Source of the DNA: Anthoceros angustus
Taxonomy: Eukaryota > Plantae > Anthocerotophyta
NCBI GenBank assembly: GCA_010909165.1
Contig: VJWM01000118.1
Coordinates: 124,001 to 188,000, forward strand
DNA: 64,000 nucleotides
Direction of reading: 5' to 3'
Part shown: positions 14,345 to 64,000 of the stretch, one piece after another
Layout of the letters: each line of letters begins with the position of its first letter
Numbering within the stretch: position 1 is the stretch's first letter
Translations under genes and position numbers: made by a program
The notes under the pieces: generated by a model
Seen by the model: the letters and a program-made list of their open reading frames with translations, nothing else
Told to the model about the DNA's origin: nothing
Database searches by the model: none

Positions 14345-14835
14345 TATGAGTTGTAGGCGCCGAGTTGAAGAGCGATCAGCGGCGTCAGCTAAAGAGGAGT
14401 TGTTGGAGGCATCACCACATGTGTTTGCTTTCACACTTGTGAAGTTGGGGAAGTACACCAAGGAGAAGTTCCACATAATGCTCATTGCGAATGAACCAAT
14501 GTCCCGCAGGAGGCACATGCTCAGCAAGGCTAAGTGGGATTTGATTGAGAATCGATGCCAAGAGCTCGTCAAGCTAGGGCTGATTCGACGATCTAACTCG
14601 TAGTACGCAGCTGCAACAGTGCTTTCCAAAAAGAAGGATGAGAATAGACTGTGGACGAAGAGGAGAATATGTGGCGACTATCGCCCATTGAACGAGCGAA
14701 TCCCACATGACCATGCCGACGACCGAAGAGATCTTTGATACTATTAGATTTACCAAGTTCTTCTCAACATTGGACTTAAGGCTAGGGTTTCACCAAGTAG
14801 ACATCGCCGAAGAAGACAAGAAGAAAACGGCAAAT
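14345..14835 (+). mobile_element. Ty3/Gypsy reverse transcriptase N-terminal fragment, same family as the element at 46.4-52.4 kb
   Basis: ELVKLGLIRRSNS*YAAATVL..KK..RRICGDYRPLN..MPTTEEIFD..FFSTLDLRLGFHQV.IAEEDKKKTA; 14345-14520 aligns to 51231-51405. Confidence 0.85.
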
Positions 14836-28320: not shown

Positions 28321-28572
28321 ATGTTTCCTAGTTCGGAGTCTATCATATGTATATAAAGGGTTGTGAGGTAGCTATAGTGCTCAACATTTCTTATTTTATG
28401 TAATGATATGCTAACTAGAGAAGTGTATCGTGTATAATATTTGCTTGCTTAACTTAAGAGAAGATCAGGAAAAAAAGCAAAGGAGCAAGTTATTACTCAT
28501 TTCTTGTAGTGACGTGTAAGCTTGAGAACACTCGAGCGTTGTATTACTTGAGGTTACTTACTTTTGTCGGAG

Positions 28573-35900: not shown

Positions 35901-38900
35901 CCAACCACGGACACCGATGTCCTCTTGGGTGATGATCACAACCTCCCAATAGCTGGTGCAGTTCTTGTCCTCGATGTTCCACAGTCGACTCTTCACTTAC
36001 GCCATGTCCTTCATGTACCATGTGTAAAAATCTAGTCTCGCCGCTAGTTTATGTCATGCACATACTATGCAAGTCACACTTTATGCGATAGTTGTCTTAT
36101 TTCATACACCTCCAATAAGTCACATGCCATCTGCATAGGCATACTAGAAGATGGGCTATACAAACTTTCAGCTCAAGTGGGTCCCACATTCCATCAATGT
36201 CCCCAATTACACCACCCGGCCATACCATGTTGTGGCATTGTCGTCTCGGTCATCCTAATAGCCAAAAATTAGTACAAATGTCTAAGGCGGAAATCTATAC
36301 CGCACACCCCTTTCTCAAATTCAACACCTTCCATGGTGTGAGACTTGTGTCATTACCAAAAGACATCAAGCCCCTTCCGAACATCTCTCCACAGGCGACA
36401 TCTCCTCTAGAGCTTGTTCATACAGACATTTGTGGCCCTATCTCTACACCTTCCTTCGGTGGTAGCGAGATATTTTTGACCTTCATCGTGACTACTCCCG
36501 CTTTACACTCACCTATATCCTTAATCACAAGGGTGATACTTATCATTTCTTCAAGGACTATATGGCTGGCGGAGAGATTGAGAGAAGAAACTCAAGACCT
36601 TACGTTGACAATGGTGGCGAGTTTACTTCTAAGCTTTGAGGACTTTTGCCGAGCTCAAGGTATAGCTCAACAACTCCTTCGCTTACAAGATGCCTGCATC
36701 CTCCCGCCTACAAATCAAGGTACCTTGATAGTGGAGCTACCTCACACATCGTCATGACAAAGACTCCTTTGAGTCATATTCCCCAACCACGGACACCGAT
36801 GTCCTCTTGGGTGATGATCACAACCTCCCAATAGCTGGTGCAGTTCGTTGTCCTCGATGTTCCACAGTCGACTCTTCACTTACGCCATGTCCTTCATGTA
36901 CCATGTGTAAAAATCTAGTCTCGCCGCTAGTTTATGTCATGCACATACTATGCAAGTCACACTTTATGCGATAGTTGTCTTATTTCATACACCTCCAATA
37001 AGTCACATGCCATCTGCATAGGCATACTAGAAGATGGGCTATACAAACTTTCAGCTCAAGTGGGTCCCACATTCACATTCCATCAATGTCGCCCCCACCG
37101 CACATACCATACCATGTTGTGGCATTGTCGTCTCGGTCATCCTAATAGCCAAAAATTAGTACAAATGTCTAAGGTGAAATCTATACCGCACACCGCCTTC
37201 TCAAATTCAACACCTTCCATGGTGTGAGACTTGTGTCATTACCAAAAGACATCAAGCCCCTTTCGAACATCTCTCCACAGAGGCGACATCTCCTCTAGAG
37301 CTTGTTCATACAGACATTTGTGGCCCTATCTACACCTTCCTTCTGGTAGATATTTTTGACCTTCATCGACTACTCCCGCTTTACACTCACCTATATCCTT
37401 AATCACAAGGGTGATACTTATCATTTCTTCAAGGACTATATGGCTCGGAGAGATTGAGAAGAAACTCAAGACCTTACGTTGACAATGGTGGCGAGTTTAC
37501 TTCTAAGCTTTGAGGACTTTTGCCGAGCTCAAGGTATAGCTCAACAACTCACCGTTGTATACACTCCTCAACAAAATGGCGTAGCTGAAAATAAAAATCT
37601 GCGCCTTCAAGAGATCACGCTTGTTAACCCAAGCAAATTTACCCAAAGTATATTGGGCTGAGGCACTCCTCACAGCCACATATCTCATGAATCGATCGCC
37701 CACTGCGGTCAAGGTATGACACCTTATGAAGCCTTTCTTGGCAAGAAGCCTTCTATTGATCATCTCGCATTTTGGATCTCCGCATATGTCTTTATTCCTA
37801 AAGCATTGCGTAAGTTAGATCCGAAGCGGCCGATATACTTTTATTGGTTATACGGAAGGAATCAAGGGCTATAAATTATTTGATCCTTCCACCAAAAGCT
37901 TCTTTATGCTCGCGTCACTTTTCATGAACATTCCCTATTTTCTCCTTGATGGGAGATCTAATGCCTCCCATCCTTCATCTCGATGCGGAGCTGAATGTTC
38001 TTCTTTTGATACTAGTGACTACATTATGGACTTCCCTGTTCACCTCTCCGTGTCCCTTCCGATGGACCTATTATGCAAGAGGAGGAGGAGTTAGCCCCCG
38101 TCTTACGTCCCGACTCACCTTCATTAGATACCGAGGAACCTCAACATTTTGAGGATATTCCTGCTGATCTGGACGAACCTGAGCGTGACCCTGAGTAAAT
38201 ATTTAGTCGAGGACCCTCCTCAGGAATCAACCCTTCTTGAAGACGTAGAAGACGAGCAACCTGCACAAAGGTACAATCTCAGAACCAGACCAACCATCCC
38301 TGGTCCTGCAGGTTGGAAGGAGCCTCCTTTGGGATACCTAGCTACTTCCGAAGCCGTATATCAGGCAACTATTGACCCAGAAGAACCCACTACTCTCAAA
38401 CAAGCCTTCTCATCCCCTGAAAAGGACTTATGGAAGGCAGCAGTAGATTCTGAATATGACTCCTTGATCAAGAATTCTACATGGGAACTGGTCAAACCCC
38501 CTAAGGGGAGGAAGATAGTGACAAGCAAATGGGTATTTAAAATCAAGAGAAAAGGAGATGGTTCCATTGAAAGATATAAGGCACGTCTAGTAGCCAGAGG
38601 CTTTACACAAATTCTGGCCTAGACTACGTACCTTGGGCCACTTATGCCCCTGTAGCCAAATTTGCTAGCCTTCGAATGATATTTGCCTTATCTGCCCAGT
38701 ATGATCTTGAACTCCATATGATGGATGTAAAGACAGCATATTTACATGGGCATCTACAAGAAGAAATATACATGAAACAACCCGAGGGTTATGAGGTTAA
38801 AGGCAAAGAAGATTTGGTGTGTAAGCTTATTAAATGTATCTACGGATTGAAGCAATCCGGTAAGGAATGGAACAATAATACATATTAAGCTTATTAAACG

Positions 38901-41796
38901 AGGTTTTAGACAAGCAAGGCGATTCTTGCATGTATATCTTAATCTCGGAAAAGAGATAATTTACCTCTTACTCTCGTCGACGTATTGTAGCTTCCTCTTC
39001 ATCCTCTCTCCTAGCCGAGATTAAAGCTTGGTTAAGAAGTCATTTTGAAATGACTGATCTTGGAGAGTCGACTTACGACTTGGTGTTAATATTATGAGAG
39101 ATAGAAGCCGTAAGACTTTAAGCGTTTTCAAACAAAATATATTAAGGAAAGCTTAATCAAATTTGGATTAGAAGACGCTAAACCACTCCCACTCCTTTTG
39201 CTAGTGGGATCGACTCACGTTGGAAATGAGTCCTAAAGCAGATGAGACAAATTCGGATGTCAGTTCCTTATCGACATGCTGTTGGCACACTTATATATTT
39301 GAGCAACTTCACTAGGCCTGACATAGCTTTTGAAGTTAGTGCTTGTTCACAATTTTTGGAGAATCACGGTCGTGAACATTGGGCATCTCAAACGTATATT
39401 TAGGTACCTTAAGGGTACAATGAATACGAGATTAGTTTATCAACATACACCAAGTATGAACAAACCAATATTAACGGCATATCGATGCCGACTATCGTGA
39501 TCCCGACACGGCGATCGATGTCGGCTATGTACTTATGCTATGCAAAGCTCCCATATCATGGTCAAGTAAGAAACAAACGACCATTGCCCTTTCAAGCACT
39601 GAGTCAGAGTATAGAGTACTAACCTCAGTTGCCAAGGATATTGTATGGAGTAGGTTAGCCTTAAGTGAGCTCAATCACACACAAGACAACCCTACACCTC
39701 TATACAGTGATAGTCAAGGAGCCATAGCATTAGCCAGAAATCCTGTTTTCCATTCTAGGACTAAACACATAGCTGTCGAATACCATTACATTAGAGAAAT
39801 GTTGGGAAATAAAACTATTGATATTAGTTATATTCAAACTCAGGATAACGCAGCTGATTTATTCACAAAGTCCCTTGGTCGGGAATTACATATTAAACAT
39901 ATGAAGACCTTAGGTATATTAGATACCAAGTCAATACCAACCTAACCAAGAAGATCAGCAGCTATCTGGGCCGATTAAGTTAACCTTATTTCTTCAAGCC
40001 CATTTCTTAACTACATATTCCATTTCCTCTTCAATTTCTAAATGGTCTTCGTAGTATTCCCCAGCATCCTTGCTAAGTGCCCAAGCAGATCCTAAACCAT
40101 AGTGCAAGAAGGGTCAAAATAATATTTCTTTATTATAACTTTTGCTTATTGAGAACACTTACTATAGATGTGCTTAGTGTGTCCTCTGAACTCCTTACAC
40201 AGTTCGGAACCTAGTCACACCATGTGGATTCCGGTAATTTGGTACACATATTCAACTGGAGGGTTAGAAGCCGCATAATCTCCAGGGCACACTATGTAAG
40301 TGGTAGTGGTCAATCCACCTTCAGGCATGCAAAAGCTTGGACTTCCTTGCAATATAGCTTGGACTCGCGGCTTAATGGGGTGGATCACAAGTCTTAGGAG
40401 ACTTGCCCTTGCATAAATTTTCTTGATGAAATCATCAATTTCGTGAATCAAGGAGTGGAACATTTCAGCACGTATGAGCATATGTGGGCATGAAAGTTGG
40501 TTCCTACCTTTGCTATTAGATTCTTCATGAAGGTTATCACTATATTTTTTGTCGATGATATCTCGATTACACCAACGTGCCGCAGAGGTGTGTTGTGATG
40601 AAGATCAATTGCTGGCATTCCAGCTGCCATTCGCGATTCAACCCATGTTTTCATATACAGAAGTTCAGAAAATTTGAGGCTTCACCATCTGCTGAGGTTC
40701 CAATTCTGTCACAGCTGTTGTTGTTTCCAATGGTATAGTCATGGCGGCCATCTTCCACAGCTACGATGCCGTCGTGCCTTCTGCTTGACCTTATGATATG
40801 TGAATTTCCAGCCACTTTAGGAAACAGATGGATATCTGCCATGATTGCATCAGTGGCAATCTGCTGCTTATTCTTCCTTGTGGTGCTGCAGCAGCCATCT
40901 GACCTGGCCGCAATGCCGTTGTGGTATGAAATTGTGGTCTGGCAATGGAAGGAATCCTCCCCAACGGGACTGGTGTTGTAGGAGGTCGGAGGATCTTTTT
41001 GCAAATTCAGCAGTTCCTTCTGGATGCGTTTCCCCGCCATGGATGTCCTGTGAGCACAGCCTAAGGGCGCCCTGTTTGGAGGGGAGAACACAAGCAGACA
41101 ATGGCCGCAATGGCCGCAACAGCAGGAAGGTATGAAGACGGTATCGCAATCAAGCCCCACACATGCGGCCACTATTTTGTTGACTAGAACTCTAGGCCTG
41201 GGCGCCCGGAAATGGTCGACAGGAAAAATCGGCTGGACGGCGCACCGGCGAGCGTGGCTCCGCCGTCGCCATAGCCGCGGGCGAAGCTTCTTGTGTGGCT
41301 CCGTGTCAGTGGACGACGGTGGGCGAACCGCCAAGCCCGTCCGTTAAGTTTTCTTTTCGGCATTTTCATTTTAAAAATATTTTCCTATTTTCTTATATAG
41401 GTTATTTCCTTTATGTTTTTAAATTAATTTTGCTTAAGGTCTAGTCTTGATTTTAGGCCTATTTTGGCTCATTTTGAAGCTAGAAAAATCCTCTATTTTG
41501 TCACCCCTAGTTCACGTGAGTGGGAGTGATGAAATATATTAGGTATAGGGCACTATTCACTAGGGCACCTTTACTTAATGATTATTATATGCCTAGGGCA
41601 CTAAGTAGTTTTCTTTAGGTGGTTATTTAGGTAGTTAGTTGTTATAACCACTTATGGTTATAACCACTTATAGTTACAACAACTTATGGTTGTAACCACC
41701 GACTCTACCTACTATATAAACACTCTTGTATTTTCTATTATGTAATGCAACTCTACAAGACTCTTTTGCAAGTGCGTTTGTGCGTGATTCTCATCA
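32989..41796 (+). mobile_element. Full-length Ty1/Copia LTR retrotransposon
   Basis: Near-identical 270-bp LTRs 32989-33258 and 41527-41796 (TGATG...CATCA), 5-bp TSD AAAAT, PBS at 33259, PPT before 41527; gag (LRNRDLWDIV), protease YLDSGATSH, LWHCRLGH, integrase LELVHTDICGP, RT KARLVARGF/MDVKTAYLHG, RNaseH ISWSSKKQ..IALSSTESEY. Confidence 0.95.
40930..41040 (-). pseudogene. Captured ubiquitin-conjugating enzyme E2 (UBC4/5 class) N-terminal fragment inside Copia
   Basis: [37 protein letters not shown] vs plant consensus [37 protein letters not shown]. Confidence 0.8.
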
Positions 41797-43150: not shown

Positions 43151-43560
43151 AGTCTAGGGTTAAACTAGGGAAGGTCAGTCTAAAGTTAAACTAGGAAGTA
43201 GCTAAATAAGTGAACCAATGGAGGATCAATCATCAATTTGAATGAGCAACAATTAAATATTCTCTTAATTGGGAGTGGTATTTTCCTTGTTAGGAAACTC
43301 TCAATTAGTAAACAGTGGAAGACCACTCGTTATATTTGAATAGGCTGCAATTAGATATGAGAGGGTGGCTTCCTAGTTGAGGATCCCTAACTCGTATATA
43401 AAGGATTGTAGGCCCTAGAAGTATAACTCACTTATTATAGTGTATGTAAGCTTCAGATAATTGATCTATAATTGATTGATTTCACGCTTTTAGTACTGCA
43501 TAGGGAAAGGAACAAAGCCTCTTAGGTTATACTACTCAAGCTTCATTACTTTTGTTGAGA

Positions 43561-44769
43561 ATGGCCAGTAACAGTAGGAACATGGAACATCATGCTTACA
43601 CATCTAGAAATTTGTGTGTTGAAAATCTCAATCCCTTGATTACAGAAGATGATCTATATCAAGTTTTTATTGCATTTGGGTTCATTGAGTCTGTGCAGAT
43701 AGAGCGCAATGTCTTGAAAGGAGATTCAAAAGGCATCGTTAATTATAGTCATGTACAAGACGCTGAATTTGCCTTACAAAGTCTAAGCTCTGTTTGTATG
43801 GAAGGAAAGCTCATGCAAATCAGTTTCTTAGCCGACGAATCAAACATAGTAAAAATTGGTGAACGAAATCTAACAAAAATTGGCGAATCAAATCTAACAA
43901 AAATTGGCAAATTAAGTGTAGCAAAAAACGGCAAACCAAATATAACAAAAAACGATGAATCAAATATAATAAAAAACGGTAAATCAAATATAACAATAAA
44001 TGTTGAATCAAATATAACAAAGAACAGTGAATCGAATATAATAATGAGTGATGAATCAAATCTAACGAAAGGTGGTGAATCGAATATAAAAATAAGCCGA
44101 GCTGCAAAGAAGATGAACCATAAGGATTTGACATTCACATCTGAGTTTTTGTGTGTGGAAAATCTTAATTTTGATATTACAGAAGGTGATATATATAAGA
44201 TATTTGTTCCGTTTGGGCCTATTAAGTCTATGCGTATAGTGCGAAATGTCTCCACAAGAGATTCGAGAGGCTTAATTAAATATTGTTATGAACAAGATGC
44301 TATATATGCTATACAAAGCCTAAACTCAGTTCGTATGGGAGAAAAGCGTATGCGAATCAATTTCGTATTGAGTGCATCAAATATAAGAAAAACTTGGGCT
44401 GCGAAGGTCATGGACAATGACTCCACATCTAGATGTTTGTGTGTGAGAAATCTTGATTTTGCTATTACAGAAGGTGAAATATATGAGGCCTTTATTCCAT
44501 TTGGGCCTATTGAGTCTATTCAAATAGTGCGCGAGGATAAGAAAACAAATGCACAAACATTCACTTCATTAATTATCGTGTACAAGGCCTAAATGTGCTT
44601 TGCAAACCCTAGACTTAGTTTGTAAGGAACAACAACAACAACAGACATTAGTTTCTCATTTGGCACATCAAATATGATAACAAAACATAAAGGTCCCATA
44701 TTAGATACAAAAAATAAAATTGGCAGGTTTGTTAAAGCCATAAAATCTTTTTTTGCGGATAAATCATAA
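43561..44769 (+). CDS. Intronless AT-rich triple-RRM protein with ESNITK repeat linker (one apparent frameshift near 44570)
   Basis: Three LCV(E/R)NL...F..FG.I.S units; the duplicate copy supplies an intact third RRM (FSFINYRRVQDAKCALQTL). Confidence 0.7.
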
Positions 44770-45056
44770 TATTTTATCCTTGCACCAAGTGGTGCATCAA
44801 GTGCATAAAAACAAGAATATGATTACTCACTTGAAAAAGTGGGATATGATTATAAAGAGTTTGCCATCGTTTTGAAAGTGATTTATAGAAAATATTCTAA
44901 TCAAAATTGTCTTAAATCCTCAATCCAACCCCTACCTCATTATGATGTATTTATAATGATATAATAATTTAATAGATTGGAAACCGGATGGAGTTGTGAC
45001 CGAGTTCATCTTTGCCAAGACATCCCGATAGTCCAAAGGGATGCCGATGGCGTTTT

Positions 45057-46400
45057 CTTGAAAGGAGATTCAAAAGGCATCGTTAATTATAGTCATGTAC
45101 AAGACGCTGAATTTGCCTTACAAAGTCTAAGCTCTGTTTGTATGGAAGGAAAGCTCATGCAAATCAGTTTCTTAGCCGACGAATCAAACATAGTAAAAAT
45201 TGGTGAACGAAATCTAACAAAATTGGCGAATCAAATCTAACAAAATTGGCAAATTATGTAGCAAAAAAGCAAACCAAATATAACAAAAACGATGAATCAA
45301 ATATAATAAAAACGGTAAATCAAATATAACAATAAATGTTGAATCAAATATAACAAAGAACAGTGAATCGAATATAATAATGAGTGATGAATCAAATCTA
45401 ACGAAAGGTGGTGAATCGAATATAAAAATAAGCCGAGCTGCAAAGAAGAAGATGAACCATAAGGATTTGACATTCACATCCGAGTTTTTGTGTGGAAAAT
45501 CTTAATTTTGATATTACAAGGTGATATATATAAGATATTTGTTAGTTTGGGCCTATTAAGTCTATGCGTATAGTAAATGTCTCCACAAGAGATTCGAGAG
45601 GCTTAATTAAATATTGTTATGAACAAGATGCTATATATATACAAAGCCTAAACTCCAGATGGGAGAAAAGCGTATGCGAATCAATTTCGTATTGAGTGCA
45701 TCAAATATAAGAAAAACTTGGGCTGCGAAGGTCATGGACAATGACTCCACATCTAGATGTTTGTGTGTGAGAAATCTTGATTTTGCTATTACAGAAGGTG
45801 AAATATATGAGGCCTTTATTCCATTTGGGCCTATTGAGTCTATTCAAATAGTGCGCGAGGATAAGAAAACAAATGCACAAACATTCAGCTTCATTAATTA
45901 TCGTCGTGTACAAGACGCTAAATGTGCTTTGCAAACCCTAGACTTAGTTTGTAAGGAACAACAACAACAGCTTCTGTACATTAGTTTCTCATTTGGCACA
46001 TCAAATATGATAACAAAACATAAAGGTCCCATATTAGATACAAAAAATAAAATTGGCAGGTTTGTTAAAGCCATAAAATCTTTTTTTGCGGATAAATCAT
46101 AATATTTTATCCTTGCACCAAGTGGTGCATCAAGTGCATAAAACAAGAATATGATTACTCACTTGAAAAGTGGGATATGATTATAAAGAGTTTGCCATCG
46201 TTTTGAAAGTGATTTATAGAAAATATTCTAATCAAAATTGTCTTAAATCCTCAATCCAACCCCTACCTCATTATGATGTATTTATAATGATATAATAATT
46301 TAATAGAATTGGAAACCGGTCAGCGTGACCGGAGTTGTGACCCGAGTTCATCTTTGCCAGCACATCCTGATAGTCCAAAGGGATGCCGATGAGCGTTTTC
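45057..46400 (+). repeat. Tandem partial duplicate of the triple-RRM gene (~43712-45056)
   Basis: Restarts at tcttgaaaggagattc; near-identical apart from 1-3 bp indels. Confidence 0.85.
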
Positions 46401-47024
46401 TTGAGCAGGCCATCGTGGGGATGTAATCAGCCCTGTCATGCCGTGTGATACTAATCTCTGCACTTGGGTTTAGTGTTTGATTAGCATTAGTTAATCTAAT
46501 TACTTATCTTTAAGTAAGTAATTAGTGTTAATTAATCTAAAGTGCTTATGTTAATTAAGCATTGATTAGTGTTAATTAATCTAATGTGCTTATGTTAATT
46601 AAGCATTGATTAGTGTTAATTAAACATGGTTAGCAATAGTGGATAAGCTCAAGTAATATGCTTTGGCATATTCCTTGCATATTATAGTGTATTCTTAGGA
46701 TACAATAGCTAAGTGGATAAGCTCAAGTAATATGCTTTGGCATATTCCTTGCATATTATAGTGTATTCTTAGGATATTTGGCATATCTTGCCAATAGGAT
46801 ATCTTAGGAATATGCCGATGCGGTCTAGTATATATACTTCCATTGAGGACAAGCTCGGATCATAGCTTGTCCTCTAGATATCTAATGCAAGGCGTTGTGA
46901 GGAGGCCAAAGCTATGACTCAGAGGCGATGTGTGAGGAATTTGCGTGTTGTTCGTGGGGAGGTGTGTTTGTGCCACGACGCGAGCTACTCCCTCCTGTTA
47001 CAAGCTATGATCCTGCACGCTGGG

Positions 47025-47345
47025 TGATGCTAGGCGATGCTGATGCTAGGCGGTGCTAGGCGATGCTAGGCGGTGCTAGGCGATGCTAGGTGACACTGGC
47101 GGCGCTAGGCGTGCTAGGCGATGCTAGGCGATGCTAGGCGATGCTAGGCCGTGCTGGGGAGGCCAGAGCTAGAAGCAAGTGGCAAGGGACTCTCAAGTGC
47201 CCAAGTCAAGGCCAAGGAGGAGGCGAAGCCCAAGTCCAAGGCCAAGGAGGCGAAGAAGCCCAAGTCCAAGGCCAAGGAGGCGAAGAAGCCCAAGTCAAGG
47301 CCAAGGAGAGGAGGCGAAGCCCAAGGCCAAGGAGAGGAATGAGGC
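47025..47345. repeat. Tandem arrays in the element leader: 10-bp (gatgctaggc) and ~27-bp (aagcccaagtccaaggccaaggaggcg)
   Basis: Directly visible, about 11 and 5 copies. Confidence 0.9.
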
Positions 47346-47497
47346 CTCCACAGGGGCTGGCCTTTTAAGGCCAACCAACCAAGGGAGAAACAAGAGTATT
47401 TTACTCTTGGGGATTCAAGGGATAAGGGGAAGCGGATAGACATGGGTATGTCATCAGTCCATTTGATTTCACTTTCTGTCCAAGTCCTAGTTTGTCA

Positions 47498-47551
47498 GCA
47501 CCCCATCCAAGTACTGATCCACCCCGGTGCTTAACTCTGGAGTTCTTATGC
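47498..47551 (-). other. 5S rRNA-derived internal control region (A box to C box)
   Basis: Reverse complement CATAAGAACTCCAGAGTTAAGCAC...AGTACTTGGATGGGGTG vs plant 5S CATCAGAACTCCGCAGTTAAGCGT...AGTACTAGGATGGGTG. Confidence 0.65.
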
Positions 47552-50190
47552 CTTTGCTATCCAACTCACCCAGCTCACATTTTTGACTAAAGTATAGCCT
47601 GCAGAGTATTTGTATGCAATTTAAACATGCATAGATACTTAGAGGTTTCACTAATCACGATCTAAGTTAGCGGGGTGTGTTAACCTTGATTAAGGGTTTG
47701 ACCTAGCCACTAACCGCCTGGAGTGCATGCCTGGACACACTCGATCCGGACGGAGCTACCAACCAGTCCAGTCCAGGCGAATTCAAGTCCCACCAAGAGG
47801 AGAAGTGCGAACACCGATTTTGGTACCACCGAAGGACGGAGGAACCCAGCGACAATCAACAATCTTTGAAGGATCAGTGGCAACACACAAGACACGTTAG
47901 TGCTGCGGACAACTCGGTGAGCGGCGGCGAGGAGGACTTGTCTCTTGGAGTCGCCAAGATGGGAGGAGACAAGGATCGAATGGAGTTGTTCACAGGACGG
48001 CGGGCACCTTGCCACCGGAGGACTTCATCGAGAAATACGGTGCGGTGTGCGGAGATGGAATTGAAGACCGGATACACGAAGCGATACGGCTTCATCCAAA
48101 TGCCAAGTACTTGGGGATGAAGCATTGGCGTGCTATCGCGAGCACAAGGCGAGGCTTGGCCGTTGGAGGACCAGTGAGTAGCAGTTCAAGCTCAAGGAAC
48201 CGTGCGACGGAGCGGTGGCCGAGTGGGCACGATCCCATCGAGAGATGTTTGACATCTTCCGGCTGGAGTTTCCTGCAAGCACGGATGAGAAGATCTCCGA
48301 GCTGACACACTTCAAGATGAAGTCAGGCGAGACTGCGAAGATGGCTTACCGAAGAATCGACCAGTTGGTACGTGACACCAAGATCATGAGTGACCGTGGC
48401 GAGAATACTTACGGGCATTGCCATATGCTGCGCATGAAGGTGCAACAAGCGGTGCACAGACGAAGGGCAACACTACACCCTCAAGGAAGTGTACGAGATG
48501 GCTGACAAGATAGGGCCCGCTGACACTTTCTCTCGTGCTGTTGCAAGTGATTACTCCAGCACAAGTAGGAGTGGTGGACGACATGACCGACGCGGAGGTC
48601 GAGTGGAGGAGCTCGGAGACAAGCCAGCCCACAGCCCAAGTGAGCCCTGCGTGAGGTGCCGAGGGACGGACCATTCCCTCATGAGTGCGAGCATGCATTC
48701 GGAGGAGTCAAGGGTGAGGAGCCATGCCCTAGGTGTGGATGCAGGCACAATGAAGCGGCATGTTGGGAGAAGCATCCGAATTGCGGCCTCACGGGTTATC
48801 GAGCAGCAACCCGGCCAATGCATCTCGTCAACCTCATCCACAAAATCGCGAGCAAAGGCGTGTGGAGGCAGGCGAAGTCCCGTGGACAAAAGAAACGGGA
48901 AGCATCAAAGAAGACGATGGACAGCTACGTGGCACGCCTCGCAAAGCTGGAGAAGTTGGTGCGGAAGGCGAAGATCAAGGAGAGCGGTTCATCATCGGAG
49001 GACGAAGAAGATGAGCACAAGCTTGGATACATGGCGGCGTGACCAGATCCAAGGGCAGGAAGAAACCGCTCTACGAGAGAAGATAGCTCGGAGGAAGAAG
49101 AGGATGTCTTGACACCAGTCACGGAAGACACGGAAGCTTGGGGATCCTCTTCCGAACCTATGCCAAGATGCCAAAGTCGTTTGAGCCATTGCCAGCGAGC
49201 AACTGTGGGAGCAACATCAAAGTCCAGTGGGCGATGTGGAGAAACCCATGCAGTTCGGGAGGCGATGGCACAAAAGCTTCGGAGATGCCATGTTTCACCT
49301 ACAAGACATGGGGTTGAGCGTGAAGGAAGTCGGGGTTTGACTCGGCGGATGTTGACAACCCTTGAAGACAAGTGTCGATTGTGCCACACAGTGGCAATGA
49401 TGTCATTCGACCTCGCCAAGCATCTCGTGGAGAAGCGGAATCTGCAGTGGGAGTGGCTTTGGTCAACAATCGGAGAGGCACATTGAAATCAATGGATTCG
49501 CACCAAGGAGGTGTTGATTGACACCGAGCACAGCCGTGATCGTTGGAAGAAGAGTGAAGGAAGCGTTGGGTCTCCACCAAGAAAGGTTGAAGGAAACCAA
49601 GTGGAAGATCCGGACCGGTGGGACCACGGAGCATGTGTTGGGGTGACAAGGTACAAGCTGAAGGTTTCATTCAAACCAAGAATGAGACTTCACCTTTGTC
49701 GAGGTACAATTGCTTGGTCATGCGAGACACTTTTGATGTCTTCTTTGGGAGCGGACGCTTTGTACAAACCTGAGTCATGGTGGATTTGTGGGAGAGATCT
49801 ACTATCGACCAGTGGAGAAATGGAGCAAAACCGATGAGATTGCCCGCATCCCTCTGCATGGCAAGGATCATGAGAACCTCATTGCCTCTACCCAGTGTTT
49901 GGCCGTGGTGAAGGACACGCCATACGTGCTTGAACCTCTTGGCGTGTGTCTAACAACCAATGACGATGGAGGATTTCGACGAGGAGGAGGAAAACAAGCT
50001 AGGGTTGCAACCACCCTCGGAGGAGGTTCTTCAAGTCACTCGGACGGAGCTGGTGGACTGATGAGCCGTGCAAAGGCTGTGGAGGATGGTGCAAGAGGAC
50101 CAGTCCTATGAGGAGAACTACTAAGTTCTTGCCTAGGGTTGAGCCTGTGACCTAAACACCAGGTCATCACATGGCGACCTCGGGAAGAAG

Positions 50191-51065
50191 GGCATAGTGC
50201 TCGTGGAACTCTTTGGAGGCATCGATCGCTTGAAGCGGTGCTAAAGTGTGGCATCAAAGTGCGAAGATACGTGCATTGTGACCCGGATCCAAAAGCAAGG
50301 ATTGTGTCACGAGCGTAAGAGACTTGATGGGGAGTACCTAACCTCCGACGTGGGAGTCGGTGAAGGGTTACCGGAAGGCGCCGATGGATGTTCGCATGAT
50401 AGGGTTGTCCCATTTGAGTTGTCTTGGGCTGGACCTTGTCATCGCAGTTGGGAGTGTCAAGGACTATCCTCTGCAGGCAAGGGTCAAGGTCAAGGATCCA
50501 CGAACAGCATTGTTCTATGACCTGAGGATCTTGCGCTTGATCCGAAAGGGCAAGAAAGGCCTTGTGGATACATGTTGGAGAATGTGCCAGCATGCATGAG
50601 CGTGAAGAAGCAAGTTCGGAGGACTTTGCCACGATCCGAGGAGTGTTGGGTCGAGCTTCTATTGGATGCAGCTCAATTTGGTTCGAGGGCTCATAGGTTG
50701 AGGTCCATGTGGACTAACCTTGCTCCCTTGGAACATTTGAAGTGTGCGAGGTCGTTCACCAAGCGACCTAATCATGTTGTCAAGGATGTGCTAGCATCGG
50801 AAGGCATGCCCAACAAGTCATCAAGAGACAAGCCGCACTTCCTGTGAACACGCTGGACACCCCATGGCGGCCAACCTTTGTGTCTAAGTCCAAGTCTTAC
50901 GCCGAACCATGGCCCGGCGTTGTGGTGACAGACATGGCGAGGCCTTGGGAGAGCCAACACCACAGAGAGGAGTTGGCCATGGGATTTGATCCGGAGCCAC
51001 GGACAGGAGTGACCGAGAAGGCAGTGTCGATTGCTTGGGCAAGCATTTGACGTGAACATGATGAC
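50191..51065 (+). CDS. DNMT3-like C5 cytosine methyltransferase domain in the retrotransposon polyprotein (frameshifted in this assembly)
   Basis: GIVLVELFGGI (I), LEAVLKCGIKVRRYVHCD (II), MDVR (III), DLVIA(G)WECQGLSSAG (IV), DPRTALF (V), YMLENVP (VI), LDAAQFGSRAHRLRSMWTNL (VIII), ELAMGF (IX), RLLGQAFDV (X), all in canonical order. Confidence 0.88.
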
Positions 51066-53234
51066 TGGTTGTTTAGCTGGGTCGCTTACCAACTTCGAAA
51101 CCAAGAAGGCGGGGTTGAAGCGGGTTCGGTGGGTGAAGGACATTCGCACTCGCATCTCAACAGGAGAAGGCGAGTTTGGAGGGCAAGGAGAGTACGTAGA
51201 GGAAGCGTGCAAGCCATCGAGCCACAACACATGAGTGGTTACAGGTCGAGTTGAAGAGCAATCAAGCGTCGGCTAAAGGAGTTGTTGGAGGCATCGCGAC
51301 ATGTGTTTGCTTTCACGCTTGCGGAGATGGGGAAGTACACCAAAGGGAAGTTCCACATAGAACTAATCAAGAATGAACCCGTGTTTGCAGGAGGCACAGC
51401 TCGATGAGGCAAGAAGAAAATGGCGAGCAAGCGGGAGAGTAGTCCACATGACAGGCCCATAAGGATGTCAAGACAAGCCTCCACTCATGGACAAGGTTCA
51501 TAACCTCGACATTCCGAAGGAGATTGGTTTTGTGCACAATGCGCTACATGAGGTGCGTGCGTGTGTAGTCCTACTAATGATAATGTTTTGACTTAGAGTC
51601 TCACATTATCAGGGGGGGATTGGTTGCACCTATATATCAGCGTATCCGATTTGTTTGCTTGGTTGTTGGTCGAGGAAGTGCTTATATGAATTCAAGTGCT
51701 TACCTCGTGCGACAACTGTCATGCGGTGTGATACTAATCTCTGCACTTGGGTTTAGTGTTTGATTAGCATTAATTAATCTAATTACTTATCTTTAAGTAA
51801 GTAATTAGTGGTAATTAATCTAAGATGCTTATGTTAATTAAGCATTGATTAGTGTTAATTAATCTAAGGCGTTTATGTTAATTAAGCATTTATTAGTGTT
51901 AATTAAACATGGTTAGCAATAGCTAAGTGGATAAGCTCAAGTAATATGCTTTGGCATATTCCTTGCATATTATAGTGTATTCTTAGGATACAATAGCTAA
52001 GTGGATAAGCTCAAGTAATATGCTTTGGCATATTCCTTGCATATTATAGTGTATTCTTAGGATATTTGGCATATCGATGCCAATAGGATATCTTAGGAAT
52101 ATGCCGATGCAGTCTAGTATATATAGACCCTTCCATTGAGGACAAGCTCGGATCATAGCTTGTCCTCTAGATATCTAATGCAAGGCGTTGTGAGGAGGCC
52201 AAAGCTATGACTCAGGAGGCGATGTGTGAGGAATTTGCGTGTTGTTCGTGGGGAGGTGTGTTTGTGCCACCGATGTGCGAGCTACTCCCTCCTGTTGTTA
52301 TTGGTTGCACCTATATATCTGCGTATTCGATTTGTTCGCTTGGTTGTTGGTCGAGGAAGTGCTTACATGAATTCAAGTGCTTACCTCGTGCGACAGCCCA
52401 CTCCTTGAAATTCATCCGGTTACGCGATAATGACTTAAGAAACTGGATCACGTTAGCCAGCTAGGAAGGAAGGGGCCGAAATTCTTCCGCAAGGAGGAGG
52501 TTGAAGAATTTTTTTCGCACCGTTCGTCGGGGGGGAGTACCACCATTCCATTGGGGAGAGAGAGGCCTAAGAACATACAATGTTGCTTGAGCCAAGTCAA
52601 GTGAGTAAGTACGACACGAATATCTTCCATACCAAGCTTACCTTCAAGCTTGGCTGCAAGCGGCTTGAGTTTAGCTAGGAGAATTTTTGGCAAGGTTTCT
52701 CTATATTCATTTCCAAGAAAGGTCCAGCAATCGAGCCCCGAGAAGGATGTAAAAGTCTAGGGAAAGCCTGAACTAAACTATCACACATGTTTCAAACTAC
52801 ATAGAACACTATTATAGTCGGAGAGTGCTAGTGTGCTACTACCTTGGCCGGCAGCTTGAGTGAAGAAAAACATCTCTAGCCCACAAAATTAGGCTATGGT
52901 TTAGGAGAGTGATGTTTTCTAATAAAACATAAGTGAACTTTTTTGTAATTATTATCTTTCAACTAAAAGAATCAAGTCTTTGAGTCTTTGAGTCTTCTCT
53001 CTTTTCACTTGGTATGAAAGCGATTCAGTGCTCACATTTTAGTGTGGGATGCTGTAAACTTCGATGTACAAGGAAAAGGGAAAACAGTGCCCGCCACGTG
53101 GCGCCTCCATGTCTTGTAAACGAAGGGATGCAAAATTAGAAAGTCGGGCCGCTTCCAACCACCCATCGTCCTCCTGAAAAGTAATGTCCTGTAAACCAAG
53201 GGATGCTGAATTAGAAAGCTGGCCTGCTTCCATC

Positions 53235-56172: not shown

Positions 56173-59100
56173 TGTCACAGGAGTGACCACTCAGAACCCT
56201 CGTGACACGGGCGTGGGCGAGGACCAGCTAAGTCCATGGTGCGGGGGCAGCAGACACCCCTCTTTTCACGTCCGAGCAGAGGCGGATCTCCAAGCAGCGG
56301 ACACACTCGGCCGCCTTAGATTCCGTAATAGGCCATATAACAGGATAATCACCCGTGGGTAAACCAGTATAAGTAAATAGCCGGTAGTTTAGTTTCAACC
56401 GTATTAGTTAGGAATACATTCTTGTCACTAGACCAGGGACCCCTATATGTACACATGATGCAAAGATCAACACGGCTTGTTCGGGCTCATTCGCAAGAGA
56501 TCGACATTCCGATCGAGGCTTGCGACATATCGAGCCTCGTTCCCGGCATCCGGATCCTTGCCGGCCAGAATCATGGGCTCAGGCCGAAGATGAGCGACAG
56601 TGTCCCGGAGAGGTGGAGATCACGAATCTCCAGCGAGGATGAACGACCCTCGAAGGATTGGTGGCCGAGTGCGCCGAGGTGGCGGCCGATCCCCTCCGCC
56701 GTGCTGCTGGCAGAGATCCGAGTCCTCGGGCGGGAGCTGCGGCAGACGAGAAGGACAAATCGAGACGGAACAAGATCGCCCTCCGGCGGCGCGCGAGCAG
56801 CGTGGCGAGCCTACCGGAGGAAGGTGGCGAGCACGCCGCGAGGCAGGATGGCGGATTATGCCACGAGATCTGCGCGGCGAGCGGCGCGCAAGCGGGAGAC
56901 GCCTCTCCCGCCAGCGGCGCGCAAACACCCGGCCACCCACCAATCGGACACGACCGATGAAGCGGCAAGAACCGGATCGGCGGATCGGCCACGAGGACCG
57001 CCGTTGGCAAGCGCACCTCGGAACTCGAAAGAACTGCGAGAAGGCGATTCCACAGCCGTCGAGGACACGGATCAGTTGTGACGGCTAAATCGGGTTGAAG
57101 CCCGTGGGAGGAGGTCGAGCCGCCTCGACGCCCGGCCGAGTGCTCGGGCCCTCGATCCGGCCCGTCCGGCACCGCACCACGCAAGCCATGTGCGGTCGGT
57201 CCCGGCGCTAACGGCCGAGGCTCGCTTGGCAACAATGTCGACATGCCGCATCGGTCGACCAGTGAGCGTGAGAGAAGGGGCATGGCGGTAATGACCCAAC
57301 CCGGAGTATGGGCGAGGATCACCTCCGGAAGTTGGTGGTCGAGCCGAGGAGAGGGGAGAACAAGGACATCAAAGCCCTTGTTCGCCGCAACTCCTCCGCT
57401 ATGAACACCGGGAGGCCCAAAAGGGCTTACCAAGACGGTGGAATCCATGGGGCGACCCCATCTTCAAGCCGGCTCGGTGGATAAGGAGCTCCAAAGGAAA
57501 ATCCGCACCACCATTCAACGGAAATGAGAAAGGCGCCCAAGTACATGGTGCTTGATAAGCTAGACAAGTACACGTGCCACCGGAAAAGGATGACCCGTGA
57601 TCCAATTTTGTGTGATGTCTCTCGGAAGGATACTACCTGGTGGGTGGAGGAGAAGCAGTCGAGTTGGGCATGGAGGCTCCAATCTACACAGCCCACGTTC
57701 CTGGTCTTCTTGGAGCACTTCACGATTAACCATCGGCGAATTATATCATCAATTACGGAAGATTCAAAGAAGCAATGTCAGAGTATTGTGACAAGTTTCT
57801 CAACTCACCTTGGATATGCCTCGCCTCGACGAGAAGATTGAAAAATTCATTGATGGACTCAAGCCCGACCTCAGCCGATGTCAACCAGACGAATCCGGAA
57901 CCGGTGGGCGCCATGAAGAGGCGCCATAACTATGGCGTTAATAAGTAAACAAGCGAGCAGCCAACCACAAGGCGAGATGGGGTCGGGCATCGATAAATCT
58001 TTGCAAAGAAACCCGTCTTCAAGATCGGAGGAGGAGAGGAAAAAGTATCATGAACGCCACATGTGCTTTACCTGCACCTCGACGGAGCACGGCTCCAAGA
58101 CCTGTCCTCACCGTCGCGACTTCATCAAGTGGCTAAAGGAGACCGGCCAGACCACACGCGCTCCCGCCTCCTTTGGCTCCAGCGTGAAGAGTGGCCACTC
58201 CGTCAAGATTGAAGAGATGACCGACACCACGAAATCGGTCGCAGCCTCCTCCAAGCTTTGCCAGTGCGGTCGGTCGAGATACATGACTGAACCATGTCCC
58301 CATCAAGCTGCAGTCAAGCGCAAGGTGTCACGCCACGGTGTTGGGCAATGATGCCGCCACCACTACATGACCCGTCACGGCCGCTCTCGGGCCGGGCTGC
58401 ACATACAAGACACGGGACATGAGTCCACGATGAATTCTGACTGCAGCCGGTAGGGATCGACAAGGAAGACACCTCGTGGTCACCTTCCGGCGGATATGAG
58501 GAAATTCTTTTGTTCACCGTCATGCCCAGCTGTGCCATGACCTCATTATCGGCAAAACCTGGCTCAGACACTCCGGTGAACATCGTGGGCAAACAACATC
58601 GTCGGGTTAGCCCACGCCGCCACGTCATGTCGAGACAAATGCGTGCGGACAAACACTGCTTGCGATCCTGCTCTAAATAAAGCCACGCCCAGGGCGGCTT
58701 CTGCAAGACTAAAGAAAGTCTTACCTTTGGAGGCACCCGAGTCCCGTGCAGCCAAGGCACAAGGACGAGGATGCCCCTAAGATGAAGGAACCTGCGGGGT
58801 ATCGATCTCTTCGCCGTGCCAGGCGCCACGCAGGCCATAGATCACGCCATCAGCTGATCCACGGCCACAAACAGTATCCCGCCCCTGGGACATCCGGAAA
58901 ATGAAGAGATAAAGCGGCAAGTTGAGTTCCTCCAACGGGGTTCGCTGAGCTTGATCTCACCTTTTGGCGCTCAGTCCTTACTGGGAAAGCCCGATGGCGG
59001 TTGGCGCCTGCACGCCGATTACAAGGGCCTCAATCGAGCCACAATAAATGTATATCGATGCCCCGGGTGGATGAGATCTCGGATCAAGCGCATGGAGCAA

Positions 59101-62100
59101 AATACTTCGATTGACTTACGCTCGGGCTTCCATCGATCCGCATCGGCGGGGGGCAAGTACAAGAAGACTTCGACACGGACACTTGAGTTTGTGGTCATGC
59201 CGTTGCCTCACAAACGCCGCCCGCCACCTTTCAATGTCTAATGCAGAACTCCTCCTTCTCGGCCATGGCGTTGAAGTTTTCGACGACATACTCATCCACA
59301 TCCCCGACCGCCACTACAAGTTGGTCGGACAAGTATTTGAGACACTCGTAACACACAAGCTATTCGCCAAAGTGTGTGTTTTTGACAGTCACGAATACCT
59401 CGGTCATATAATGGCGGCATCCGAGTGGATACCAGAAGATTCGGGCAATCTCCGAAGCGCGAGATCTCACCTCCGTGGGTTCCTAGGTATTTGGATTCTA
59501 CCGGAGGTTCGTCGAGACTTGACAAAGATTGCGCGCTCCCTATGCCCTCCGATCGCATCCAAGGAATTACAACTAGGTCGGGGGCAACAGCCTTCCTCAA
59601 ACTCAAGACCCTCACACGGCCCTTGCCGTGGTCGAGCCGAGAGGAGAGAACAAGGACATCAAAGCCCTTGTTCGCCGCGCAACTCCTCCGCTATGAACAC
59701 CGGGAGGCCCAAAAGGGCGTGGCTTACCAAGACTGTGGAATCCATGGGGAACCCCATCTTCAAGCCCCGGCTCACCGGATAAGGAGCTCCAAGGAAAATC
59801 CGCACCACCACATTCAACGAAATGAGAGAGCAAGACATGACCGGGTTTGATAAGCTAGACAAGTACCGAGTGCCACTAAAAGGATGACCAAGATCCAATT
59901 TTGTGTGATGTCTCTCGAAGGATACGCCACGGCAGGAGGCCGGGAGAAGCAGTCGAGTTGGGCATGGAGGCTCCAATCTACACCGCCCACGCCCGCCAGT
60001 CTTCTTGGAGCACTTCCCGCCGCTAACCATCGACGAGAATTATATCATCAATTCGAAGATTCAAGAAGAAGGCACAATACAGAGTATTGTGACAAGTTTC
60101 TCAACTCACCTTGGATATGCCTCGACGAAGAAATTGAAAAATTCATTGATGGACTCAAGCCCGACTCTCCGCTACGACGCCAACCGACGAATCCCGAACG
60201 TGGACGCTTATGAAGACGCCATAAACTATGGCAAGAACAAACAAAGGTAACGCAGCCCAACCCTCGCCAAGGCGAGATGGGGTCGCATCGCAATGCCGCA
60301 AAAAGAAACCTGCCTTCAAGATCCGACGGAGGAGGAGAGGAAAAGTATCATGAACGCCACATGTGCTTTACTCGCACTGACGAGCACGGCCCAAGACCGC
60401 CCTCACCGCCGCGACTTCATCAAGTGGCTAAAGGAGACCGCTGCACCACACGCCTCCTTGGCTCCGGGCAGAAGAGTGGCCATCTGGCCAAGATTGAAGA
60501 GGTGACCGACACCACGAAATCGGCCGCAGCCTCCTCCAAGCTTTGCCACTGTGCAATACATGTGACCAACCATGTCCCCATCAAACCGCAGTCAAGCAGG
60601 TGTCATGTATTGGTCTGGACAAGGCCACCACTACATGACCGTAAGGCCGCCTCGTGCCGACATACAAGACACGGGACATGAGTCCATGAGTTCCCGACAG
60701 CCGGATACGGAATACACAAGACCGCGCTGGTCACCTTCCTATGAGGAAATTTCCACCGTCATGCCCATGCCCGGTACATGACCTCATTATCGCAGAACTG
60801 GCTCGCCAAAGACTCCGCCACCAACATCGATCGGCAAACAATCGTTAGCCAAAGATCAAGACGTCATGTCGAGACAAGTACGTGCTTGACAAACACCGCT
60901 TGCCGCCTAAATAAAGCCACCGCCTGTGCACTTGCAGCAAGACTAAAGAAAGTCTTACCTTTGGAGGCACCCCGAGTCCTGCGGCCAAGGCAAGCACGAG
61001 GATGCCCTACCGCCGAGATGAAGGAACCGCCGCAGGAGTATGCGATCTCTTCGCCGTGCTGTCGCCACACGCAGGCCATAGATCACGCCAGCCGATCCTC
61101 GCCACAAACTCGTAGTATCCCCCCTACGTGACATCCGTAGGGAAAATGAAGAGATAAATGGCAAGTTGACGAAGTTCCTCCAACAGGGTTCGCCGAAGCC
61201 TCACCTTTTGCTTGGCGCCCTTCCGTGGGAAAGCCCGATGGCGGTTGGCGCTCGCATCGATTGGGCCTCAATCGAGCCATGCCGAAATGTATATCGATGC
61301 CCCGGTGGATGAGATATCGATCAATCCGCATGGAGCAAAATATCACAAAGATTGACTTACGCCAAAGCCCATCGATCCGCATCCGAGCAGGGACAGTACA
61401 AGATGCCTTTCGAACTCGACCCGACACTCGAGTTTGTGGTCATGCTCGCCTCACAAACGCGCCCGCCACCTTTCAATGTCTAATGCAGAACCCCTCCGCC
61501 TTCTGGCCATGGCTGAAGTTTTTCCGACGACATACTCATCCACACATCCGACCGACCCACTACATGTTGGTCGACAAGTATTTGAGACACTGTAACACAC
61601 AAGCTATTCCCGCCAAACGTGCAAGTGTGTGCAGAAAAGTACCGGCCATATAATCACGGCGACGCATCCGAGTGGATACTGTGAAGATTCGGCAATCTCC
61701 GACCGCCCAGATCTCACATGCCCGTGGGTTCCTAGGTATGGCTGATTCTACCGGAGGTTCGGCTGGCGACTTCAAGATCAAGGCCCCTCCGACAGATGCC
61801 CTCCGCCACCGCATCCAAGGAATTACAACTAGGTCAGACGGCAACAGCCTTCCTCAAACTCAAGATGCTCCCGCACGGCCCCGATTTGCCGTGGCCAACC
61901 CGCACTCACCTTATGTGATACACACAGATGAAATACTACGCCATTGGAGCGCTTCTTCCCAAGATGGCCGGGTTATCGATATGAATCAAAGAAGTCAAGG
62001 AGCAGTGAACTACCACGATAAAGAAATGTTCGCGATCGTCCCACGACCGAAACTCGAGGCACCACAAGACTTCACATGCCACACCATCATTCACTTCAAC

Positions 62101-64000
62101 ATTTCTTCGTCACCAACTTGAATGCACGCCAACGACGTCATCATACCTGATTTCAACTTCGACATCCGCTATGTTGCGTGCCCTCGAACGTTGCCGATGC
62201 CCTCACGGCACTCATGACAACGCACCGACACCATCCGCTGCACGGAAGCTCCCGCAGACGGTGCTCCTCGTTGTACCAAGAATTACTCTCGATGCGTGCA
62301 TGTGTCACCCCACCATGCAAGAGTACACAATCAAGGATGCTTGCTCAGTATAAGAAGGGACGCTTGGTCATCCTTCGCACCACCGACATCAAGAAAGCAA
62401 TCCTACATGATCTCCACGATACCCTCGGACATCTCGGCGTGATAAGACATACGCTGGAACATTTTATTGGGATGGCCTCCGAGCGACGCCATCAATCGGG
62501 TGCGGCCTTGTACTCTCCCCAATGTGCCAAGACCGACAATCGAAATCGCCAAGTGTTGCTCCCACTACCAATCCTCATTGTAGGTTCAATCCATCTCCAT
62601 GGATTTCATTACCACCCGCCTGTGACCAGCCTGAAAGAATGATCTGGCCATGGACCGACTCTCAAGATGTGCCATTTCATCCCCACCACCGACACCATAA
62701 AGACCCAAGTTAGTACATATTCCTACGGAAATATTCATCGCATGGTATTCTCACCAAGATTGTCTCCGACCGAGACACCAAGTTCATACCGATTCGAAAT
62801 GCTCAGAGTCCCCAAGACGCTTATCATCACCTTGCCATCCCAATCAAATGGGCAAACCGAAAAATGTAACTGGCATCAAGACATGCTTTACACTTCACCC
62901 ATGAGAAACAAGGCAACTGGAAATTATGTTACCTTTGCTCGAGTATGCATACAACACCTCAAAGCACGCAATGGGTGGCGCCTTCGCTTCTTTATGGATC
63001 ATGCCCGCCACCTCCCGCCTCCTGACAGACAAATGGGCCAGCAGTAATCGCCGAGGACGTATCATGAGGTTCAAGAAGCCCGCAAGAAACTATCCGCAGC
63101 AGATCGGCATACAAAGTGCGCAACAAACACCGCAGGAAGTGACTTACGGTTAGGCGGAAGGTATGGCCGTATGCGCCCTCAGGTATCCCTCACTCATCCA
63201 TTGAGGGAAGCTCACCTACCGATTCTTTGGACCCTTTGAGATCCTGGCAGATCAATCCGGTGGCATACCACGCCCTTCCGCATGGAAGATGCGCAAGACC
63301 TTCCACGTGCTCGATGCTCAAGCCGATCGTCACCGAGCTCCACACCTGCCAAGACCCAACACCGGTCGGTGGATACCCTCGGTCGAGCGCGCCCGACTCA
63401 ACACGGCCTCCACCAACTCACCGGCCCGGCTCTACGATCGGACTCCAGGCGTCCTTCGCGCCGACTCACCGCACTCGGCGGTCCCTAGCTCCGGCGCTCT
63501 TCAACGGCCGCCGCCACCGCCCGCCGCGGTCGCCCCGATCCGTCGTCAAGCACCGGCGACTCGGCCACATGTGGACCCACGCATCCTCCGGGTTAGATAT
63601 CAGCTTCGCCGCACTGATTGCTTGGTAGGTTGGTCCAAGCGGCCGACGCCCTAGCTACTTGGGAACCCCTACTTTGGTGTCAGCAGTTCCAGCGGCTCAA
63701 TAGCGGCTCCAAGGTGCGGAGGACCAGCCCTCGCTAAGTGGGGAGAATGTCACGAGTGACCACTCGAACCCTCGGTAGCGGGCCGTGGGCGAGACCAGCT
63801 AAGTCCATGGAGGCGGCTTGGACACCCCTCTTTTCAGCGTCCGAGCAGAGGCGGATCTCCAGCACGGACAACAACTCGGCTGCCAGTTCCGTAATAGGCC
63901 ATCTTGGGATAATCACCCGTGGGTAAACCGGTATAAGTAAATAGCCGGTGTAGTTTAGTTTCAACCGTATTAGTTAGGAATACATTCTTGTCACTAGACG
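56173..64000 (+). mobile_element. Ty3/Gypsy chromovirus-type element with internal ~2.3 kb tandem duplication; 3' LTR runs off the window
   Basis: LTR starts TGTCAC at 56173 and 63748 (PPT aagtggggagaa); gag knuckle CFTCTSTEHGSKTCP; RT KPDGGWRL..DY.GLN, IDLRSGFH, LTNAPATFQ; RH YHDKEMFAIV; IN AILHDLHD..GHLG, QSNGQTEK; chromodomain-like LVGWSKRP..ATWEP (~63620-63670). Confidence 0.88.

Follow-up and report, generated by a model that had tools for sequence, protein, structure and literature searches.

What kind of mobile element would carry a cytosine DNA methyltransferase (DNMT) within its pol region, and how would such an element copy itself? Both questions arise from one locus in the window, the whole 64,000-nucleotide stretch of DNA analysed here, where a sequence-only reading had proposed that a Gypsy retrotransposon encodes its own DNMT3-like enzyme. 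We found a 5,962-bp Ty3/Gypsy element at 46434-52395 (+ strand) that runs from gag through protease and DNMT to the start of reverse transcriptase (RT), is interrupted by a deletion and closes with the tail of a PHD finger (Table 1). Our reading, to which we give a probability of roughly two in three (0.68), is that this is a deleted Ty3/Gypsy copy of the KnitGypsy-Dnmt3 kind, with the DNMT between protease and RT, and that reverse transcription of the intact form is likely self-primed and its insertion likely proceeds from end-joined cDNA.

The kinase, F-box/kelch, SRR1 and RRM genes of the window and a PPR-like remnant indicate a land-plant host. Genes at 1295-4359, 11974-12930, 25538-27013 and 32044-33100 include those for a queuosine salvage protein, an F-box/kelch protein, a single-exon SRR1, a SERK-like kinase domain with one in-frame intron and a PPR-like protein, the last of which looks broken by eye. 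In a tree of SRR1 proteins, that of the window pairs with one unnamed protein (support 99/99) outside a clade of seed plants and three unnamed rows taken for ferns, and apart from Selaginella moellendorffii, Diphasiastrum, mosses and liverworts, with algal rows sharing the open base; AU tests rejected none of four alternative groupings (Selaginella p 0.18, lycophytes p 0.07, liverworts p 0.43, mosses p 0.29). The host is probably a seedless land plant, which we put, partly from PPR motifs, at about even odds for a hornwort and lower for a spike moss; a vascular host is not supported. The RRM genes (28552-29496 and 43504-46100) show local duplications and internal tandem repeats of 21-48 bp. 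A Copia element at 34770-39945 contains three near-identical 881-bp tandem units, the first two of which are separated by 1 substitution and 4 indels, which points to indel noise in the assembly. Another Gypsy element at 57000-64000, chromovirus-like by eye, has many frameshifts and a 2.3-kb internal duplication that is 79% identical.

Two sets of sequences served for comparison: 25 loci from a motif scan of metagenome contigs (L numbers), most of which were shown by translation to be relatives, and 90 protein relatives (P0001-P0090) among 7,991 scored candidates of 553-2,000 residues. Gag, protease and DNMT of the window are colinear with P0015 from Marchantia across 48242-51117. The gag region aligned to L025 gag with a score of 124 (shuffles 43 +/- 5, n=5) and the RT start to L007 pol 38-77 with a score of 67 (shuffles 29 +/- 2), while the PHD tail reached a weak 42 against 29.6 +/- 3.0 (maximum 37 in 20 shuffles) at the position expected for it. 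The protease of the relatives matched Asp_protease_2 below the curated cut-off. RT ends after about 45 codons near 51400 and the PHD tail follows, so some 2.2 kb has been lost, and with it RNase H, integrase and the greater part of RT, a loss that the sequence-only reading missed. The window copy is internally deleted, broken and non-autonomous. A second RT fragment of the same family elsewhere in the window is 83% identical to the element over 162 nt and scored 287 against L007 RT (shuffles 35 +/- 3).

Table 1. Features of the DNMT-bearing element and of a separate fragment of the same family, in window coordinates
Feature	Position	Strand	Remark
Target site duplication, left copy GCCC	46430..46433	+	right copy 52396-52399
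Repeat A1	46434..46999	+	begins TGTC; contains predicted R and U5 and a TATA-like box, 46829-46836
Predicted transcript 5' end	46857..46870	+	perfect complement of primer binding site
Predicted self-priming primer binding site	47000..47013	+	adjoins A1
gag (capsid part and two Cys/His knuckles), broken	48242..49099	+	alignment to L025 gag
Aspartic protease, broken	49493..49800	+	VLIDT at 49511; alignment to P0012, P0028, P0015
DNMT3-like C5 cytosine methyltransferase domain, broken	50160..51075	+	frameshift-aware alignment, motif order
Reverse transcriptase start, truncated by internal deletion	51255..51400	+	alignment to L007 pol 38-77
PHD finger, C-terminal half (…GDWFCAQC), pol end	51403..51545	+	weak score, expected place
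Polypurine tract	51609..51619	+	between pol end and B1
Repeat B1	51620..51714	+	GACA at end; 4 substitutions vs B2
Internal junction GACA-AC-TGTC, predicted integrase attachment site	51711..51720	+	same motif in L003, L007, L019
Repeat A2	51717..52296	+	repeat comparison with A1
Repeat B2	52300..52395	+	GACA at end; 3 extra bases between A2 end and B2
Target site duplication, right copy GCCC	52396..52399	+	pairs with left copy
Second, separate RT fragment, same family	14361..14832	+	nucleotide and protein alignment

Repeats A1 and A2 differ by 12 substitutions and 7 indel events, and the A and B pairs together carry 16 substitutions in 660 bases, so the insertion is young, though its coding part is full of breaks. 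Some of these breaks may be assembly noise, because near-identical duplications elsewhere in the window carry 4-6 indels per 370-880 bases. Contig alignments at 12 of the 45 indel sites revealed two sites inside the DNMT that are carried by most of the depth in run X1; others are in the minority in run X1 and in the majority in run X3. All 30 bins of the element were covered by thousands of contigs from three DNA runs and two organisms, so the family, DNMT part included, is repeated; the depth does not equate to copy number.

The DNMT motifs named in the sequence-only reading were all found, in the right order and spread over three + strand frames: VELFGGI at 50203-50223, then GIKVRRYVHCD, DVR, DLVIA and WECQGLSSAG (from 50449), followed by ENVP (from 50578), DAAQFGSRAHRLRSMWTNL (from 50665), ELAMGF (50970-50987) and LLGQAFDV (from 51031). 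Read across the breaks, they make up motifs I, IV (W-E-C-Q), VI, VIII, IX and X in linear order, with the catalytic Cys present, and alignment confirmed that they lie between the protease and the RT start of the Gypsy element. We aligned window 50000-51300, allowing for frameshifts, to the DNMT domains of four relatives and obtained local scores of 291, 268, 243 and 233, against 32-35 +/- 4 (maxima 39-50) in 40 shuffles each; the aligned part, 50160-51000, is about 40% identical to the relatives and includes 8-12 frameshifts or stops. Because these scores lie far above the shuffle maxima, we regard the domain as real. A phage Dcm scored 87 by the same method (shuffles 32 +/- 3), and three bacterial or viral enzymes scored 52-68. 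The observation that no single ORF shows the whole domain was borne out, with a Pfam DNA_methylase match in 0 of 19 stop-free window pieces and in 0 of 3 frames over the domain. The window's own DNMT frames likewise matched no PDB chain, word-based protein searches with the DNMT and RT pieces found no match, nor did searches of viral contigs, and among 50,697 phage records the best tblastn match of one frame was a dcm gene, at no better than E = 1. In the ESM Atlas, unnamed clusters ranked first and a PF00145 cluster stood at 0.89, which serves as a lead only.

The type of the domain is read from the relatives. All five of their long, open DNMT-bearing frames (L002, L005, L007, L019 and L025) matched PF00145 above the curated cut-off (E 4e-7 to 2e-13). 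When relatives were compared with the PDB by sequence, by profile and by fold, DNMT3A/B/C came first each time, before HaeIII, HhaI, DRM, DNMT2 and DNMT1; with one profile (A2), E values were 2e-16 to 9e-13 for DNMT3, 1e-7 for HaeIII, 1.5e-6 for DRM and 0.017 for DNMT2. A structure model of L007 also ranks DNMT3A/B first, but with a pLDDT of 60 and an rmsd near 15 it adds little. The domain thus appears to be DNMT3-type and non-permuted, as first proposed, the ranking of nearest type coming from the relatives and the linear motif order from the window itself. The residue before the catalytic Cys is E in the window and in 28 of the 90 relatives and P in 58 (4 unread), and W-E-C-Q in motif IV is a family variant. 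A motif-pattern ranking of the 90 relatives was partial, with 29 rows missed and several mis-centred.

Relatives carry the DNMT in two places. It lies after the protease or before RT in 56 of 90 and after RNase H or before integrase in 30, and the remaining 4 show the DNMT only; RVT_1 occurs in the same protein as the DNMT in 26 of 90. In a quick tree built from 90 of 95 relatives (five dropped for a short or overlong domain) without host DNMT3 rows, the type with DNMT after RNase H forms a 31-row clade with support of 99 that includes a Haematococcus protein, and the window DNMT forms its own long, unresolved branch outside the liverwort clades. The domain has thus moved within pol, and the family, with Haematococcus in the second type, reaches chlorophytes. 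Named relatives include Marchantia (7), Calypogeia (2), Closterium (4) and Haematococcus (1); none of the 90 bears a vascular plant, moss or hornwort name, and none is a protein of Klebsormidium nitens. One relative, P0070, is labelled as a Minisyncoccia bacterium bin and is probably algal DNA in a metagenome bin. The seven Marchantia polymorpha gene models (P0015, P0017, P0022, P0029, P0030, P0033 and P0041) are gag-protease-DNMT polyproteins, annotated as hypothetical genes (e.g., Mp4g09160 and Mp8g17980).

L007 and L019 preserve the full order: gag, protease and DNMT, a stop, then RT, RNase H, integrase and PHD. The best solved-structure match of L007 RT was Ty3 RT (E 2e-75). The ORFs of both loci contain an rve integrase, and none of their Pfam matches was to a tyrosine recombinase (phage-integrase), which rules out DIRS/Ngaro identity. 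At the end of ORF1 in L002 (2081-2089), L007 (5083-5091), L019 and L025 we found an in-frame TAG followed by CARYYA (CAR-YYA), in frame with pol; CARYYA after TAG is a plant-virus read-through signal. In these four relatives, where ORF1 ends before TAG-CARYYA, DNMT would be made at the level of Gag; no TAG-CARYYA was found between DNMT and RT in the window. Among L002, L007 and L019, dN/dS was 0.10-0.13 for the DNMT and 0.06 for pol, with dS above 1.3 in two of the three pairs. Together with the 90 relatives and the multi-contig coverage in two organisms, these ratios show that the DNMT is a family trait under selection and no one-off host fragment.

DNMT-bearing retrotransposons had already been reported, as the sequence-only reading noted, in the form of KnitGypsy-Dnmt3 and SymbioDIRS-Dnmt3 (PMC5890265). 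KnitGypsy-Dnmt3 of K. nitens (de Mendoza et al. 2018, PMC5890265) has an intronless, non-permuted DNMT3-like domain in a Gypsy polyprotein, purifying selection on that domain and, according to the Fig. 4c legend, DIRS-like A-coding-B-A-B repeats. All of these features recur in the window family, which appears to be of this kind, direct kinship with K. nitens resting on architecture. Unlike the published element, the window copy is deleted and broken, and the genes around it are those of a land plant. The main text of that paper is silent on a PHD finger, a read-through stop, a self-priming site, an internal junction or a 4-bp duplication, which its figures may show. SymbioDIRS-Dnmt3 shares a DNMT3-type domain in Pol and the A-coding-B-A-B repeats, but has a DIRS RT and a tyrosine recombinase (PMC5890265), unlike the Ty3-like RT, rve integrase and target duplication of the window family. 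EpiLTRs of Cymbomonas and Euglena also combine a cytosine DNMT with a chromatin reader in an LTR element. Their enzyme, which occurs alongside DAM and a chromodomain, groups as sister to DNMT4 and is described as separate from streptophyte Gypsy-DNMT3 (bioRxiv 10.64898/2026.05.21.726589). The family itself is not new: annotated gene models of liverworts and Closterium already contain it, and the Gypsy-DNMT3 kind is in print for K. nitens and cited as streptophyte Gypsy-DNMT3. What appears to be new here is the anatomy of the ends, with split repeats, an internal junction below the tract and a self-complementary primer site. In the open-licence literature we found no paper on land-plant members, the internal junction or self-priming, on which the supplementary figures of PMC5890265 may bear.

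The likeliest job of the enzyme, at about even odds, is to methylate new cDNA: the protease would release the DNMT inside the particle, where it would act most likely at CG, and the new copy would arrive in the genome already methylated. The odds are set this way because the related enzymes of SymbioDIRS-Dnmt3 methylated CG de novo in yeast, while the K. nitens domain produced no methylation there, a result its authors called inconclusive (PMC5890265). That failure, and the E that replaces P before the catalytic Cys in 28 of 90 relatives and the window, would also fit a domain kept for a non-catalytic task (binding DNA or RNA, or shielding the cDNA or its junction) or for RNA methylation. We consider this unlikely, though it deserves real weight, since human DNMT3B likewise failed in the same yeast assay (PMC5890265), the Cys, the Glu of ENV and the R-x-R of motif VIII are retained in nearly all alignment rows shown, and dN/dS is low. 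Of the proposal that the element acts as a methylator, therefore, the DNMT3-type domain stands, but the window copy, with its breaks and deletion, can neither encode a working enzyme nor move by itself.

The ends of the element depart from the usual Ty3/Gypsy plan. The order is A1-coding-B1-A2-B2, and the whole begins with TGTC and ends with GACA between 4-bp target duplications; L003, a complete 9,127-bp element, has the same layout and the same four terminal bases, with AAGG as its target duplication. TG...CA ends and a target site duplication are thus as in Ty3/Gypsy, but in place of two complete TG...CA LTRs of the same layout the repeats are split, A on one side and B-A-B on the other. 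GACA-NN-TGTC lies about 100 bp (102-122 nt) below a G-rich or polypurine tract in all 4 elements that reach that far (the window, L003, L007 and L019). The 10-bp motif occurs at 4 other places in the window, where no G-run precedes it, and about 3 occurrences are expected by chance in 200 kb, so only its position counts. In both complete elements, the primer-site end of A meets the tract-side start of B within 1-3 bases at the A2|B2 seam. Troyka (CG...CG ends, 3-bp duplication, animals only) was ruled out by the TGTC...GACA ends and the 4-bp duplication, and Phygy/Selgy (tRNA-Trp or tRNA-Ala primer site, no extra domain) has only the 4-bp duplication in common.

The predicted primer site complements a stretch of the element's own predicted 5' end, which sits about 20-25 bases below the TATA-like box in A. 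The complement is 14 nt in the window, a length reached in 0 of 300 control windows (maximum 9), and 17 nt in L003, L004 and L021 (0 of 300 each); it is 15 nt in L007 (without a control), 11 nt in L016 and only 7 nt in L014, where 109 of 300 controls reach 7. The LTRs of the window, L003 and L007 share no blastn similarity, so primer pairing has been kept through turnover of the LTR sequence. A hairpin overlaps the predicted transcript start at 46846-46875 and is found at the same place in L003 and L007, whose LTRs are unrelated. Folded as RNA, 46840-47030 did no better than its shuffles (z -1.3), and the best fold did not contain the primer pairing. Tf1/Sushi elements and plant Tcn1 also have a primer site that complements the element's own 5' end and not a tRNA, but they belong to the chromoviruses and their LTRs are ordinary (Neumann et al. 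2019, PMC6317226), unlike the window family with its PHD finger, DNMT and split LTRs.

From this anatomy, read in genomic sequence that includes two complete elements, we infer that self-priming and end-joined integration are likely. The transcript would start in A1 below the TATA box and end in A2, and its 5' end would pair with the site beside A1 and prime minus-strand synthesis, as in Tf1. The true LTR would then be B-att-A, reaching from the polypurine tract to the primer site, and linear cDNA would therefore lack TG/CA ends. Joining of the two cDNA ends, in a 2-LTR circle or by an end-to-end RT jump, would create the A2|B2 seam, and the DDE integrase would cut the internal GACA-NN-TGTC of the left LTR with the loss of two bases, so that the cut, joined cDNA would insert as A-coding-B-A-B with a 4-bp duplication. 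IS3-family elements form circle junctions. Foamy virus integrase acts on 2-LTR circle junctions (PMC1180852), and the proposed reaction resembles both in that a DDE enzyme would cut abutted inverted ends in joined DNA; unlike theirs, where the cut falls at the seam, the predicted cut falls within the LTR and the seam travels with the insert into the genome.

Ty3/Gypsy elements as a rule integrate from linear cDNA, and A2+B2 alone does read as a normal TG...CA LTR, so with only two complete elements examined the LTR might simply be A+B and the split layout a rearrangement of a single copy. We hold this to be quite improbable: a normal LTR begins after the polypurine tract and ends before the primer site, whereas here B comes after the tract in 4 of 4 elements and it is A, not B, that adjoins the primer site. 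L003 repeats the layout, which has also been reported for K. nitens (PMC5890265). Just as doubtful is a route without circles, in which the transcript would pass through B2 and integrase would trim linear cDNA at the junctions by extended 3' processing. Such a route would require no ligase, and split-repeat elements of the DIRS type probably take both repeats from their RNA, but by the anatomy priming beside A1 with transfer to A2 would leave B2 uncopied, and cutting linear cDNA at both junctions would yield A-coding-B only. That the window copy merely captured a host DNMT3 fragment, or that its motifs are chance, is almost certainly wrong: its own frames lack a Pfam or PDB match, but the 90 relatives, the absence of introns, alignment scores far above shuffles and a gag-protease-DNMT order colinear with the 56 of 90 relatives that share it refute it.

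Beyond the end-joined, self-primed element favoured here, we tentatively suggest, at somewhat less than even odds, an old green-plant lineage of Ty3/Gypsy elements with PHD and DNMT3 domains, spanning chlorophytes, liverworts and the window host. Such elements would have their attachment site inside the LTR and integrate only from self-primed, end-joined cDNA, making the 2-LTR circle productive; their own DNMT, at two pol places in two clades, would methylate the cDNA before insertion. Should the host prove to be a spike moss, this would also be the first case in a vascular plant among those we found.

Transposon-borne de novo methyltransferases thus persist in land plants that rely on DNMT3 for their own de novo methylation and are no mere algal oddity, and some Marchantia gene models are DNMT-bearing retrotransposons. 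Software that looks for paired TG...CA repeats would miss split LTRs, a possible reason why no clade has been named. Joined (2-LTR) cDNA is usually regarded as a dead end; in this family, to judge by the end anatomy, the integrase of an LTR retrotransposon would depend on it, which can be tested.
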